Source: Escherichia coli (GTDB taxonomy: Bacteria > Pseudomonadota > Gammaproteobacteria > Enterobacterales > Enterobacteriaceae). Taken from it: DNA of 64,000 nt. Shown here one piece after another: positions 484 through 38,496 of this stretch. Within the stretch, counting starts at the first letter, position 1; each line of letters begins with the position of its first letter. The stretch lies in assembly GCF_036507355.1 (NCBI RefSeq), contig NZ_AP027877.1. The stretch is one strand, 5' to 3'. The position numbers and the translations under genes are program-made. The notes below the pieces were generated by a model. That model worked only from the letters and a program-made list of their open reading frames with translations. It ran no database searches and was not told where the DNA came from.

Positions 484-616
484 GCCTGCGCCCGGTAGTG
501 AAGGCTACCGGGCAATTTCCCTCTCCCTTTTTCAGATCTCATCCATACTGGGTAGTGGCGAATAAATCTCATTTGCCTCACCTGCTATGCAGAACATCAT
601 CCGAAAAGGAGGAACT

Positions 617-2760: not shown

Positions 2761-3637
2761 GATGATCCTCCTCGTCATCGTCCACTTCCTTATTCGGGCC
2801 AATACCGATGTAGTGGAAAATCAACCCGGCAAAAGTGGCAATAAAGCCAGCCGCTGCCAGCGGTTTCAACGCGCCTTTCCACAGGCTTACCGAGGTGTCG
2901 ATCTTCGGATCTTTCGGCAGACCGTGATACAGCTCCGGCTGATCGGCGTGATGCAGCACGTACATAACGTGCGTACCACCGACCCCTTCCGGGTTGTAGA
3001 CGCCAGCATGTTCGTAACCACGCGCTTTCAGTTTCGCCACGCGCTGTTCCGCCAGCTCCAGCATCTCCTTCTTGGTGCCGAAGTGGATAGCCCCGGTCGG
3101 ACAGGTTTTCACACAAGCCGGTTCCTGGCCGACGCTGACGCGATCGACGCAGAGCGTGCATTTATATACCCGGTTATCCTCTTTGTTGAGGCGCGGAATA
3201 TTAAACGGACACCCGGCAATGCAGTAACCACAGCCGATGCAGTTTTCCGACTGGAAATCGACAATCCCGTTAGCGTACTGAATGATTGCACCAGCAGACG
3301 GGCACGCCTTCAGGCAGCCGGGATCTTCACAGTGCATACAGCCGTCTTTACGGATCAGCCACTCCAGCTTGCCGTTCTGTTCGGTTTCGCTAAAGCGCAT
3401 CACCGTCCAGGACTTGGCGCTCAGATCGGCGGGGTTATCGTAAACCCCGACGCAGTGCCCCACTTCATCACGGATGTCGTTCCACTCCGAACACGCCACC
3501 TGACAGGCTTTACAGCCGATACAGGTGGAAACGTCGATAAGTTTTGCGACTTCTGCTTTGTAATCACGCACCTGAGAAGGCGGCGTGATGGAGTTAGTTG
3601 CGGACCTTTTGATAATGTCCTGCGTTTCCATAGCCAT
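2753..3637 (-). CDS. fdnH: Formate dehydrogenase-N beta subunit (4Fe-4S)
   Basis: 294-aa ORF with multiple CxxCxxCxxxCP ferredoxin motifs; synteny. Confidence 0.9.
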
Positions 3638-33212: not shown

Positions 33213-33478
33213 ATGCCCCTCACAATCTTTTAAAGATTAAGTGTAGGACAGTACACAGGTTAACCAGCAAAAGGATTTGTCATTTTTTCGTCAGTTGTAT
33301 TAATCCCCTTCAGGATTGTAAGGGGATGTTTTGCATCGTTTATCGATAACGGGTAGGATGCTGCGCCGATAGTTTTATACCCATAAAGAATAATGGTGAT
33401 AACTATCATCGCCAGGATGAATAAACATTGTTCATGGCAACTTATATGACTTTTTCATTAAAGCAATCAGGGAGAGCA

Positions 33479-35090: not shown

Positions 35091-36152
35091 TTACAGCGCA
35101 ATACGAATCACATCGTCCGGCTGGGTAGCTTCCTGCTGTTTAGTGGATTTTTGTTTCACACTGACATACAGCGTTTTGCCATCGGCAGACAGCGCCAGGC
35201 TGTTTGGATGAGTCGGCGTATCGAACGTTTTCACCACTTTATAGCTTTTCGCGTCAATCACACTGACTTTACCTGCCTGACGATGCGTTACGTAGGCTTC
35301 ATTACGCGCTGAGTTAAACAGCACAGCCAGTGATTCCGGTGCCGCAACCTTCGCCAGAATATTGCCATTACGGGTATCGACCACTAACACTTCTGCGGCT
35401 TTAGAATCGGTGATAAATGCACGCTGCCTGGCGGTATCAAGGCTAATGTTGATAAAGAAGTGCTCTTTGCCGTCATCCAGCAGCTTTTTACGGCTGAGGA
35501 TTTTATTGTCGGCGGTGTCGATGGTAATCAATTCGCCGTCAGCGTTAGTGGTGTAAAGACGTTTGCCTTTGCTATCCAGCGCCAGACCGGTACTCATTTT
35601 ACCGGTGTTCTGGATGGCGGTTTTCAGTTTGATATTCTCGCCATCAACGACCCAAATCACGCTCTCTTTACCAATACCACTGATGTAAACGGTGTTCGTG
35701 GCATCATCAGCTACCAGCTCACGCGGTTGCAGCGGGCGCACCTCTTCCGTGCGCTTACGATCATCCAGCACCAGACGGCCTTTCACTTCGCCCGTTTTGG
35801 CATCTATCGCCGTGACCGCGCTGTTTACGGTGTTACCAAACCACAACGTCTGAGTCGTGTTATTGATGGTGGCACCAAACGGCTTGAGATCGTTATGGAT
35901 CGCCTGCGTCACTTCCAGAGTGACCGGATCAAGACGATAAACCACGCCACCTTTATCCAGTTTGCGGCTTTGCGAAGTGGCGAGCCACAGCGCGTTTTCT
36001 TGCTGGCTATAAGCCATTTCGTAGGCACCTTTACCTACCGCTTTACGCAGCATTTCTTCTGCGGCCTGCGTACTGAATGATGAAGCAACAAGCAATGAAC
36101 CTAACAGTAATGAACCACGCAGGCGCAATGAAAACAGATGACGTAAATGCAT
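35091..36152 (-). CDS. yncE: Periplasmic seven-bladed beta-propeller protein
   Basis: 353-aa ORF with signal peptide ending TQA-AEEM; synteny. Confidence 0.85.
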   Translation of the reverse strand: MHLRHLFSLRLRGSLLLGSLLVASSFSTQAAEEMLRKAVGKGAYEMAYSQQENALWLATSQSRKLDKGGVVYRLDPVTLEVTQAIHNDLKPFGATINNTTQTLWFGNTVNSAVTAIDAKTGEVKGRLVLDDRKRTEEVRPLQPRELVADDATNTVYISGIGKESVIWVVDGENIKLKTAIQNTGKMSTGLALDSKGKRLYTTNADGELITIDTADNKILSRKKLLDDGKEHFFINISLDTARQRAFITDSKAAEVLVVDTRNGNILAKVAAPESLAVLFNSARNEAYVTHRQAGKVSVIDAKSYKVVKTFDTPTHPNSLALSADGKTLYVSVKQKSTKQQEATQPDDVIRIAL

Positions 36153-36237
36153 GACGACTCCCTTTGATGAACCGATATTTTTGCTGCTTCACAATGCTTC
36201 GCTAAGCGTAATCATCGTTACGCTCTTGTTATAAATG

Positions 36238-36257
36238 GGAATGGTAATCATTATTTA
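36238..36257. promoter_or_regulatory. Putative Fur box in the yncE–yncD divergent intergenic region
   Basis: GGAATGGTAATCATTATTTA resembles the Fur consensus GATAATGATAATCATTATC; second weaker match GTAATCATCGTTAC at 36207-36224. Confidence 0.45.
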
Positions 36258-36393
36258 CTCAAATGTGGAGCATTTCTTGCCGTTACGACTACAATTTTCT
36301 CATTTACTTAACGTATTGTGCCGTTTCATTTTCCATAAATTTACAATTTCATTACCATGACGGCGTTTTCCCATTCTTAACCTGGCTTTTTTC

Positions 36394-38496
36394 ATGAAGA
36401 TTTTTTCCGTCCGACAGACCGTTTTGCCCGCACTGCTTGTCCTTTCCCCCGTTGTTTTTGCCGCTGATGAACAGACCATGATTGTCAGTGCCGCGCCGCA
36501 GGTGGTTTCAGAACTGGATACCCCTGCAGCAGTAAGCGTGGTGGATGGCGAGGAGATGCGCCTGGCAACACCGCGCATTAACTTGTCCGAATCACTGACC
36601 GGCGTGCCTGGTTTGCAGGTACAAAACCGGCAGAACTATGCGCAAGATTTACAGCTGTCGATTCGCGGATTTGGCTCCCGTTCCACTTACGGAATTCGCG
36701 GTATTCGCCTGTATGTGGACGGTATTCCCGCCACCATGCCCGACGGGCAAGGGCAAACATCCAACATCGATTTAAGCAGTGTGCAAAATGTGGAAGTGCT
36801 GCGTGGCCCCTTTTCTGCCCTGTATGGCAACGCGTCTGGCGGTGTAATGAATGTCACCACCCAGACCGGACAACAGCCACCAACCATTGAAGCCAGTAGT
36901 TACTACGGCAGTTTTGGCAGCTGGCGCTATGGGCTGAAAGCAACGGGCGCAACGGGAGACGGCACACAGCCCGGCGATGTTGATTACACCGTCTCAACCA
37001 CGCGTTTTACGACCCACGGCTATCGTGACCATAGTGGCGCACAGAAAAATTTAGCCAATGCCAAACTGGGCGTACGCATTGATGAAGCCAGCAAATTAAG
37101 CCTGATTTTCAATAGTGTGGATATCAAAGCAGATGACCCAGGTGGGCTAACCAAAGCAGAATGGAAGGCGAATCCACAACAAGCGCCTCGTGCAGAACAG
37201 TACGACACGCGAAAAACCATCAAGCAAACTCAGGCTGGGTTGCGCTATGAACGTAGCCTGAGTTCGCGGGATGATATGAGTGTGATGATGTATGCCGGAG
37301 AGCGAGAAACGACCCAGTACCAGTCAATACCCATGGCACCACAACTTAACCCGTCACATGCGGGCGGCGTGATTACCCTGCAACGCCATTACCAGGGAAT
37401 AGACAGCCGCTGGACACACCGTGGTGAACTGGGCGTTCCGGTCACGTTCACTACCGGCCTGAACTACGAAAACATGAGTGAAAACCGCAAGGGCTACAAT
37501 AACTTCCGCCTGAATAGCGGCATGCCGGAGTACGGGCAAAAAGGTGAGTTGCGTCGCGACGAACGCAATCTGATGTGGAACATCGATCCCTATTTACAGA
37601 CGCAGTGGCAGCTGAGCGAAAAACTGTCGCTGGATGCTGGCGTGCGCTACAGCTCCGTGTGGTTTGATTCCAACGACCATTACGTTACTCCGGGTAACGG
37701 CGATGACAGCGGTGATGCCAGTTATCACAAATGGCTACCTGCCGGATCGCTAAAATATGCAATGACCGATGCCTGGAATATCTATCTGGCAGCCGGGCGT
37801 GGTTTTGAAACGCCGACGATTAATGAGCTGTCTTATCGCGCTGATGGGCAAAGCGGTATGAACTTTGGTTTAAAACCATCCACCAACGATACAATTGAGA
37901 TCGGCAGTAAAACGCGTATTGGTGATGGGCTGCTTAGTCTCGCATTGTTCCAGACCGACACCGATGATGAAATTGTTGTCGATAGCAGTAGCGGTGGGCG
38001 TACGACTTACAAAAATGCTGGAAAGACCCGTCGTCAAGGTGCTGAACTGGCATGGGATCAACGTTTCGCGGGAGATTTTCGCGTAAACGCGTCCTGGACC
38101 TGGCTTGATGCGACCTATCGCAGCAATGTTTGCAATGAACAGGATTGTAACGGTAATCGGATGCCTGGGATCGCCCGTAATATGGGCTTTGCGTCGATAG
38201 GTTATGTACCGGAAGATGGCTGGTATGCAGGCACGGAAGCGCGTTATATGGGCGATATTATGGCAGATGATGAAAATACGGCCAAAGCGCCGTCTTATAC
38301 TCTCATCGGCTTATTCACCGGGTATAAATACAATTACCACAATTTAACTGTGGATTTATTTGGTCGTGTCGATAATTTATTCGATAAAGAATACGTTGGT
38401 TCTGTCATTGTCAATGAGTCAAACGGGCGATATTACGAACCTGCGCCCGGGCGAAATTATGGTGTCGGCGTGAATATCGCATGGCGATTTGAGTAA
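36394..38496 (+). CDS. yncD: TonB-dependent outer membrane receptor
   Basis: 700-aa ORF with signal peptide, plug domain and C-terminal aromatic residue (AWRFE). Confidence 0.85.
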   Translation: MKIFSVRQTVLPALLVLSPVVFAADEQTMIVSAAPQVVSELDTPAAVSVVDGEEMRLATPRINLSESLTGVPGLQVQNRQNYAQDLQLSIRGFGSRSTYGIRGIRLYVDGIPATMPDGQGQTSNIDLSSVQNVEVLRGPFSALYGNASGGVMNVTTQTGQQPPTIEASSYYGSFGSWRYGLKATGATGDGTQPGDVDYTVSTTRFTTHGYRDHSGAQKNLANAKLGVRIDEASKLSLIFNSVDIKADDPGGLTKAEWKANPQQAPRAEQYDTRKTIKQTQAGLRYERSLSSRDDMSVMMYAGERETTQYQSIPMAPQLNPSHAGGVITLQRHYQGIDSRWTHRGELGVPVTFTTGLNYENMSENRKGYNNFRLNSGMPEYGQKGELRRDERNLMWNIDPYLQTQWQLSEKLSLDAGVRYSSVWFDSNDHYVTPGNGDDSGDASYHKWLPAGSLKYAMTDAWNIYLAAGRGFETPTINELSYRADGQSGMNFGLKPSTNDTIEIGSKTRIGDGLLSLALFQTDTDDEIVVDSSSGGRTTYKNAGKTRRQGAELAWDQRFAGDFRVNASWTWLDATYRSNVCNEQDCNGNRMPGIARNMGFASIGYVPEDGWYAGTEARYMGDIMADDENTAKAPSYTLIGLFTGYKYNYHNLTVDLFGRVDNLFDKEYVGSVIVNESNGRYYEPAPGRNYGVGVNIAWRFE

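Follow-up and report, generated by a model that had tools for sequence, protein, structure and literature searches.

Two stretches of the short region between the divergent genes yncE and yncD resemble the consensus binding sequence of Fur, and one of these genes encodes a TonB-dependent receptor. Which of the two stretches is a Fur operator, and which of the two genes does it serve? The initial annotation took both, a strong GGAATGGTAATCATTATTTA and a weaker GTAATCATCGTTAC, for Fur boxes and proposed that the gene pair is iron-regulated. The two strings are indeed present, starting at 36238 and 36208, respectively, and their placement between the receptor gene and yncE is correct, as judged by the list of open reading frames and by matches to NCBIfam equivalogs.

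The window, i.e. the whole analysed stretch of 64,000 nucleotides, is E. coli chromosome; out of 5426 complete E. coli genomes, 5413 match the 3.6 kb around the finding with 95–99.5% identity. The regulated gene, yncE (minus strand, 35091–36152, 353 aa), is defined by the open reading frame list, by the NCBIfam NF052280 equivalog (560.7 bits, cutoff 400), and by RefSeq annotation of near-identical E. coli genomes. Its product is a Sec-exported seven-bladed beta-propeller, published as a vaccine-candidate antigen. The open reading frame list and annotation likewise place yncD, also known as pqqU, on the plus strand (36394–38496, 700 aa), where it matches the NF041535 PqqU equivalog with 1312.5 bits (cutoff 1200). 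According to published work, YncD is PqqU, a TonB-dependent high-affinity importer of PQQ. The intergenic region (36153–36393, 241 bp) has a G+C content of 37% vs 48% for the whole window and differs from that of K-12 MG1655 at two positions only, 36257 and 36303. The Shine-Dalgarno sequence of yncE, GGGAG (36158–36162, minus strand), is recognised by sequence and conservation within a conserved block, ATCAAAGGGAGTCGTCATG.

The strong string belongs to a 19-bp core at 36237–36255, which reads GGGAATGGTAATCATTATT on the given strand and AATAATGATTACCATTCCC on the yncE strand. When every position of both strands of the 64 kb was compared with the 19-bp consensus GATAATGATAATCATTATC, this core was the sole match at 15 out of 19 positions. 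A search for the same consensus with up to three mismatches returned no match, since the site carries four. To score the site independently of the consensus, a matrix was built de novo by an expectation-maximisation motif search in 17 Fur-controlled promoter regions of MG1655 (fhuA, fepA-fes, fepD-entS, fepB-entC, fiu, fhuE, tonB, yddA, sufA, cirA, mntH, nrdH, exbB, nfeF-nfeR, feoA, ryhB, and fhuF-yjjZ). The yncE promoter was excluded from training, as was the fecI/fecR region, for which the retrieved stretch did not contain the fecI promoter. The search converged on GCAAATGATAATGATTATC (16 bits), and unbiased random seeds led to the same motif in shifted registers.

Scanned with this matrix, the 64 kb have their best score, 15.6 bits, at 36237–36255. 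The same place yields 13.4 bits in a register shifted by 6 bp (36231–36249) and 10.7 bits in the reverse orientation. We refer to the union of the core and the second register, 36231–36255, as the extended operator; no strand is assigned to it. On the yncE strand it consists of the four adjacent hexamers AATAAT, GATTAC, CATTCC and CATTTA, which match NATWAT at 6, 5, 4, and 4 of 6 positions. The box takes 9th place out of 18 when ranked against the leave-one-out scores of the 17 known Fur promoters, which range from 5.8 to 22.6 bits. The PWM scoring proposed for the strong string by the initial annotation thus gave the top score of the window, in the middle of the range of genuine sites. The hexamers and the second register also give the site the arrangement expected of a Fur box, an array of three or more neighbouring NATWAT-type hexamers or of overlapping sites offset by 6 bp.

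Could such a sequence arise by chance, with no regulatory role? The low G+C content of the intergenic region, the AT-richness of the Fur consensus itself, and the empty search at up to three mismatches speak for this possibility. However, when AT-rich intergenic regions of the same length (241 bp) and dinucleotide composition were simulated, only about 0.2% attained 15.6 bits, and nowhere in the 64 kb is there a better site.

Conservation argues in the same direction. A YncE scan with one genome per species identified 80 loci across Enterobacteriaceae, of which the 78 that extended 125 bp or more upstream were used. None of these 78 species lacks the core TAATGATTRYYATTC. Scores of at least 9 bits were found between –125 and –30 in 77 of them, whereas control windows taken from the coding sequence of yncE reached 8.2 at most. 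The box usually lies 93–106 bp from the yncE ATG. In an alignment of 23 genera with a mean column identity of 60%, 15 of the 36 invariant columns fall inside 36236–36255, and TAATGATT (36246–36253) is invariant. Within E. coli, a 95-bp promoter segment was found in 5411 out of 5426 complete genomes. The site is therefore conserved at orthologous promoters, as a Fur box should be, and its retention in 78 species while the flanks diverge is not what a chance match would produce.

Published data show that Fur occupies this site in vivo. The Fur ChIP-exo peak reported for MG1655 (PMC10164565, supplementary tables) spans 1521238–1521250. Peaks were re-mapped by coordinate (NC_000913.2 + 1977 = NC_000913.3), which places this one at 1523215–1523227 in NC_000913.3, within the K-12 equivalent of the extended box (1523204–1523228). 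Gene labels in the MG1655 sheet are off by one row from P37 to P46, and the mapping rests on correcting this shift, which was checked with adhP. The second-best matrix match in the window (558–576, 15.2 bits) is located 41–59 bp upstream of adhP, and its K-12 equivalent, 1553879–1553897, is fully contained in the ChIP-exo peak published for adhP (1553875–1553902). The two intergenic sites at which ChIP-exo detected Fur in this stretch of chromosome are thus the two top matrix matches of the 64 kb. In CFT073, Fur ChIP-seq gave a peak in the yncE/yncD intergenic region as well (summit 845).

Fur-dependent expression of yncE is likewise documented in the literature. Across published fur mutants yncE rises 9- to 280-fold, with log2FC values of 3.10 in MG1655 and 8.14 in W3110. 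In CFT073 it is up 147-fold in a fur mutant and 18.4-fold in a fur ryhB double mutant, while a ryhB mutant gave 0.93-fold. yncE is a member of the Fur regulon in 8 out of 9 strains and belongs to the Fur-1 and Fur-2 iModulons; a fur mutant overproduces the YncE protein, and iron limitation raises yncE expression 16-fold. A Fur box in the yncE promoter was reported by McHugh et al. in 2003, as relayed by papers citing that work, and was found again in 2014 in a scan with the PRODORIC matrix. PMC4145685 enters yncE as ‘Fur, MarA’. The part of the initial annotation that concerned yncE is thus borne out by ChIP peaks on the box and by the 147-fold (CFT073) and log2FC 3.1–8.1 responses. Given peaks that coincide with the site and strong Fur-dependent expression, the probability that the sequence is a mere chance resemblance is negligible. 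We conclude that the strong string marks a Fur operator that functions at the yncE promoter, on the strength of published ChIP and expression data together with the sequence statistics obtained here.

The position of the operator relative to the promoter suggests how it may act. The predicted –10 hexamer of yncE, TACCAT (36241–36246, minus strand), lies inside the Fur box and is nearly invariant, reading TACTAT in most genera. Because this –10-like TACYAT is embedded in the box, its conservation is inseparable from that of the box itself. Outside the Fur motif, just upstream of the box, lies the block CTCCACATT (36262–36270, minus strand), whose columns are invariant or more than 90% conserved; a CTCCAC-like block precedes the box in 77 out of 78 species. 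It contains a predicted –35 hexamer, TCCACA (36264–36269), separated from TACCAT (36246–36241) by 17 bp. TCCACA-17-TACCAT is a plausible sigma-70 promoter for yncE, with a putative start at ~36233, although in a sigma-70 promoter scan no site on the yncE strand reached the threshold. A marbox-like sequence, ACGGCAAGAAATGCTCCAC (36265–36283, minus strand), judged against the marbox consensus, is centred at ~36274, which would be –41.5 from a start at ~36233. This position agrees with a RegulonDB annotation of a MarA site at –41.5, which is described as low-confidence and as not recovered in a Reg-Seq assay in a supplementary note, marked as AI-prepared, to a bioRxiv preprint.

A different promoter geometry could be combined with the same operator. 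Here the –10 element would be TATAAC (36233–36228), a 5/6 match to TATAAT, with a start at ~36221, and Fur would cover the –35 region and the spacer rather than the –10 element. By our own reading, a weaker marbox, GCTCCACATTTGAGTAAAT, centred at ~36262, would then fit the RegulonDB position of –41.5 just as well. However, the matching –35 sequence (AAATAA) is poor, the TATAAC block is loosely conserved between genera, and the invariant CTCCACATT block would have no explanation. A start at 36221 would also remove the 5′ arm of a hairpin with seven RNA-covarying pairs, described below. We regard this geometry as unlikely, though it is the most serious of the alternatives considered here. The box overlaps both candidate promoters, each of them predicted. 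With TCCACA-17-TACCAT as the preferred assignment, the predicted –10 element and the spacer are under the box, a layout that is classical for occlusion, and Fur probably represses yncE through promoter occlusion.

The weaker string calls for a different interpretation. Taken in every register and on both strands, GTAATCATCGTTAC (36208–36221) scores at best 0.42 bits with the Fur matrix, most scores being strongly negative, and at orthologous promoters its sequence is not conserved, since the stem sequence to which it contributes varies by genus. The string is the centre of an inverted repeat at 36205–36224, which on the yncE strand encodes a 5′-leader hairpin, AGCGUAA-CGAUGA-UUACGCU, with a stem formed by 36224–36218 and 36211–36205 and a loop at 36217–36212. 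RNAalifold predicts a 7-bp stem with compensatory double changes at all 7 pairs. The arms differ between genera while the pairing stays: we observed GCGTAA/TTACGC, GGCAAAG/CTTTGCC, GCGCAAAG/TTTTGCGC, and CGCGGTG/CGCCGCG, among others. Across genera, 92.6% of cells are paired in the yncE sense strand vs 83.2% in the antisense strand, the sense strand pairing better because of G-U pairs. The covariation score is 0.756, compared with 0.316 for shuffled alignments (none out of 500 attains it) and 0.15–0.22 for controls with slid partners. A search of 35900–36600 against Rfam 15 at E ≤ 1 matched no family.

A variable sequence whose pairing is kept by compensatory substitutions on the transcribed strand is the mark of a structured RNA element. 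What selection preserves at 36205–36224 is therefore a stem-loop in the RNA, close to where the yncE leader begins, and not a protein-binding sequence. The same contrast between unconserved sequence and conserved pairing led us to discard the palindrome as a protein operator. A small upstream open reading frame starting from the ATG in the hairpin loop was discarded too: Salmonella, Lelliottia, Raoultella, and Kluyvera, among others, lack this ATG. Fur is able to polymerise from strong sites onto neighbouring DNA, and the TAATCAT core of the weaker string resembles part of the Fur consensus, so one might regard 36208–36221 as a second, low-affinity site that prolongs repression downstream of the start site. 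A best score of 0.42 bits and the conservation of pairing rather than sequence, with compensatory changes at every pair of the stem, make this very improbable. What had been proposed as a weaker Fur box is an RNA hairpin.

Directly downstream of the hairpin the yncE leader contains a predicted pairing site for RyhB, GCGAAGCAUUGUGAAGCAGC (36183–36202, minus strand). Activation of yncE and of yncE-lacZ by RyhB has been published, and the difference between the CFT073 fur (147-fold) and fur ryhB (18.4-fold) mutants agrees with it. The best local duplex, between nucleotides 41–59 of RyhB and 36202–36183, has an energy of –20.1 kcal/mol, which is equalled by 13% of resampled leaders (P = 0.13) and hence not significant by itself. 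Block GGAAGCnATGTG within the putative site is conserved across genera. CopraRNA gave yncE a poor rank, 834th. The local scan replaced a whole-molecule RyhB-leader duplex, which was dropped when 35% of shuffles scored equally; a single-sequence minimum-free-energy fold of the leader, involving pairs with the coding region, was dropped as well, as the fold is not conserved. We looked in the leader for a conserved structure that sequesters the yncE ribosome-binding site and could be opened by RyhB, and found none. The stretch 36183–36202 is a reasonable candidate RyhB site.

We now turn to the question of whether the operator also controls yncD. The initial annotation reasoned that a TonB-dependent receptor next to a Fur box points to iron, and this reasoning fails: the receptor is PqqU, a PQQ importer, which according to those who characterised it supplies no iron and is neither Fur-regulated nor iron-induced. 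As for the claim that the pair is regulated by iron, it holds for yncE, while yncD is flat in MG1655 and responds modestly in W3110 and 042. In fur mutants, log2FC of yncD is 0.12 (p = 0.39) in MG1655, 2.95 (p = 2.7e-51) in W3110, and 2.02 in 042, and yncD is a Fur regulon member in only 2 out of 9 strains. Its derepression is modest in the two strains, W3110 and 042, where that of yncE is very large.

The layout of the intergenic region points the same way. The box is 139–157 bp from the yncD ATG and lies outside the conserved yncD-proximal blocks. One of these blocks harbours a candidate proximal –10 element of yncD/pqqU, TACCAT (36353–36358, plus strand), which reads TAMCAT across genera and corresponds to conserved alignment columns (ATG.TAA in yncE orientation); the promoter scan found no above-threshold site at 36353–36358. 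Relative to the implied yncD start, predicted at ~36365, the Fur box would span roughly –110 to –128. From these sequence features, yncD appears to be served by a promoter of its own, located in the half of the intergenic region nearer to it. Further, yncD is missing from the 3-kb surroundings of yncE in eight Citrobacter species, some of which have mcbR directly upstream instead. In all eight, the module consisting of CTCCAC, Fur box, hairpin, candidate RyhB site, and ribosome-binding site is intact. The retention of the box without yncD in Citrobacter, the separate conserved blocks of yncD, and the distance of the box from the yncD ATG indicate that the box belongs to yncE.

These data bear on the idea that the region contains one bidirectional Fur operator serving both genes, as in fepA-fes or fepB-entC, which would put the receptor gene and yncE under joint iron control. 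In favour of it, the two genes diverge from the same 241 bp of intergenic DNA; in W3110 one ChIP-exo peak is assigned to both yncE and yncD, and yncD goes up in the fur mutants of W3110 and 042. A review places yncD/yncE among head-to-head pairs co-purified with RyhB. There is also a weak promoter-like sequence on the plus strand, TTCACA-16-AATCAT (36188–36215), whose transcripts would run through the box towards yncD. However, this match is at chance level (1 found, 1.0 expected), and its –10 element reads AGTCAT in most genera. A shared bidirectional operator should be close to both core promoters and evolutionarily tied to both genes. The box is neither: it is distant from yncD and outside its conserved promoter blocks, it persists in eight Citrobacter species lacking an adjacent yncD, and yncD, described as encoding neither an iron transporter nor a Fur-controlled protein, does not change in the MG1655 fur mutant. 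A common operator is therefore improbable. We conclude that any coupling between yncD and the box is weak; given the W3110 and 042 data, the assignment of the operator to yncE alone does not hold without exception.

Where some strains retain a degree of coupling, divergent-promoter effects could be the cause. In Escherichia and close relatives the yncE operator may also block transcription from a weak candidate distal promoter of yncD at 36188–36215, antisense to the leader, by standing as a roadblock in its path, an idea to which we give little credence and put forward as speculation. If true, it could account for the derepression of yncD in the fur mutants of W3110 and 042 but not in that of MG1655, and high-affinity PQQ uptake would be conditionally tied to the iron status of the cell.

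Taken together, we consider it very probable that 36231–36255, already known as an operator, is where Fur controls the yncE promoter. The proposed mechanism is occlusion, extended by a putative RyhB feed-forward arm. When iron is sufficient, Fe2+-Fur dimers would bind the overlapping array of four hexamers on the yncE strand. As the array covers the predicted –10 TACCAT and most of the 17-bp spacer, bound Fur would exclude RNA polymerase. When iron is scarce, Fur would leave the site and yncE would be transcribed from ~36233. The resulting leader would begin close to the stem-loop (36224–36205), followed by the stretch complementary to RyhB (36202–36183), through which RyhB may add a post-transcriptional boost. 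Since RyhB is itself repressed by Fur, the two regulators would form a coherent feed-forward loop on yncE.

Fur control of yncE and the Fur box in its promoter have been known since 2003, going by the papers that cite the original report, and were later confirmed by ChIP in several strains. The modest additions of our analysis are a base-level map of the promoter, a covarying hairpin in the leader, and the evolutionary uncoupling of the box from pqqU. The analysis also corrects the reading of the region by telling the real operator apart from a look-alike RNA hairpin. A TonB-dependent receptor beside a Fur box implies neither an iron transporter nor co-regulation, as PqqU illustrates by importing PQQ. 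The map, comprising the operator, the probable –35 and –10 elements, the hairpin, and the candidate RyhB site, could guide experiments on YncE.

Compared with other boxes, that of yncE is a typical member of the E. coli Fur regulon, with nothing essential different. The 19-bp consensus of these boxes can be read as NATWAT hexamers or as overlapping 7-1-7 units. The yncE box shares with them the level of consensus match (15/19), the 15.6-bit score, the four hexamers and the 6-bp-shifted register, as well as in vivo Fur occupancy and derepression in fur mutants; it would also overlap the core promoter, as predicted here. The closest single box is that of yddA, GCTAATGATAACCATTCCC, a member of the training set; the right half, ...ACCATTCCC, is common to yncE and yddA. 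The left half of the yncE box (GGGAATGG, plus strand) is more degenerate than those of the strongest boxes, e.g. fhuF and cirA.

With respect to RyhB, yncE resembles cirA, which is also Fur-repressed and RyhB-activated: in CFT073, cirA is up 9.8-fold in fur vs 4.9-fold in fur ryhB mutants, compared with 147- vs 18-fold for yncE. The RyhB-activated shiA offers another comparison. What sets yncE apart from this class is that its sole covarying element is a 5′-proximal hairpin upstream of the candidate RyhB site.

In its layout the locus is reminiscent of the enterobactin pairs (fepA-fes, fepD-entS, fepB-entC), where a TonB receptor gene and a divergent partner likewise flank a short AT-rich intergenic region with a Fur box. 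In those pairs both genes are strongly Fur-repressed (274-fold for fepA and 388-fold for fes in CFT073), whereas here the robust response is confined to yncE. Here yncD encodes a PQQ importer, not an iron importer, is flat in MG1655, and can disappear from the locus while the box remains. A functional parallel is btuB, which encodes a TonB-dependent transporter for a non-iron cofactor; pqqU likewise imports a scarce organic cofactor and has been described as lying outside the Fur regulon. Unlike btuB, pqqU has a promoter under strong Fur control as its neighbour and is mildly derepressed in two strains.

The second-ranking match in the window to the Fur matrix, which was learned from Fur-controlled promoters of K-12, is a predicted site of 15.2 bits (GCAAATGAGATTTATTCGC, 558–576, minus strand) lying on the upstream side of adhP (617–1627), 41–59 bp from its ATG. 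When coordinates were mapped, the published adhP Fur ChIP-exo peak was found to exactly enclose the K-12 equivalent of this site. In the published CFT073 expression data, adhP is 5.7-fold up in the fur mutant vs only 1.6-fold in the fur ryhB double mutant. Mapping of published peaks also revealed that, in the MG1655 sheet of supplementary Dataset 2 (PMC10164565), gene labels between roughly P37 and P46 sit one row away from the coordinates of their peaks; the peak in the tonB region, for instance, carries the label acnA, and the yncE peak carries adhP. Peaks from this sheet should be mapped by coordinate in any reuse.

The same source reports an MG1655 Fur ChIP-exo peak labelled 'intragenic' (1520944–1520980, NC_000913.2), which is absent from the earlier data set of Seo et al. 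It maps inside yncD, at about 36502–36538, and Fur matrix scores between 36394 and 36600 never exceed 2 bits. Two overlapping matches (11.5 and 12.4 bits, 12246–12276) lie within the first codons of narU; the open reading frame spans 12177–13625, with the family match running from residue 21 (about 12237), and the MG1655 ChIP-exo table (PMC10164565) contains no Fur peak at these matches. A further sequence, AATAATGGTGATAACTATC (33389–33407), is located in the yncG/ansP intergenic region upstream of ansP, agrees with the Fur consensus at 14 of 19 positions and scores 8.3 bits. Expression of ansP is lowered in the MG1655 fur mutant (log2FC –1.39, P-value = 4.6e-7), and no reduction is seen in W3110.

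The half of the yncE/yncD intergenic region proximal to yncD (pqqU) contains strongly conserved blocks (36308–36358, plus strand), none of them Fur-related, in the upstream alignment of 23 genera. Most genera carry an inverted repeat, TTAAC-N10/11-GTTAA; in the E. coli copy the left arm is TTAACG (36308–36313), and decay of the right arm has left GTTTC. Further conserved blocks are TTTACA and a –10-like TAMCAT (36353–36358). These blocks probably represent the promoter of pqqU and a binding site for another regulator. A block of ~19 bp adjoining the yncD start (AAACGAACCAAATGGAACATG, alignment columns 47–65, window about 36360–36375) is conserved in most other genera and missing from E. coli and E. 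albertii.

On the plus strand, a promoter-like sequence, TTCACA-16-AATCAT (36188–36215), runs antisense to the leader of yncE, and its –10 element falls within the hairpin loop. Transcripts from this predicted site would cross the Fur box towards yncD. Such matches occur at chance level (1 found vs 1.0 expected), and the –10 element reads AGTCAT in most genera.

Among the loci collected in the one-genome-per-species YncE scan, eight from Citrobacter (L026, L027, L029, L030, L034, L036, L038 and L042) lack yncD/pqqU over a distance of 3 kb from yncE, and the yncE control module is intact in all of them; in L027 and L036 an mcbR-like gene of the GntR family is located directly upstream of yncE in the same orientation. 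The yncE leader, upstream of locus position 3001, is shortened in three other loci, from Pseudescherichia vulneris (L047), 'Escherichia sp.' ESNIH1 (L055) and Enterobacteriaceae UBA7338 (L057), with only 52–56 bp separating the Fur box from the yncE ATG. These leaders carry neither the hairpin nor the candidate RyhB site and provide natural variants in which the roles of the yncE leader elements can be tested.
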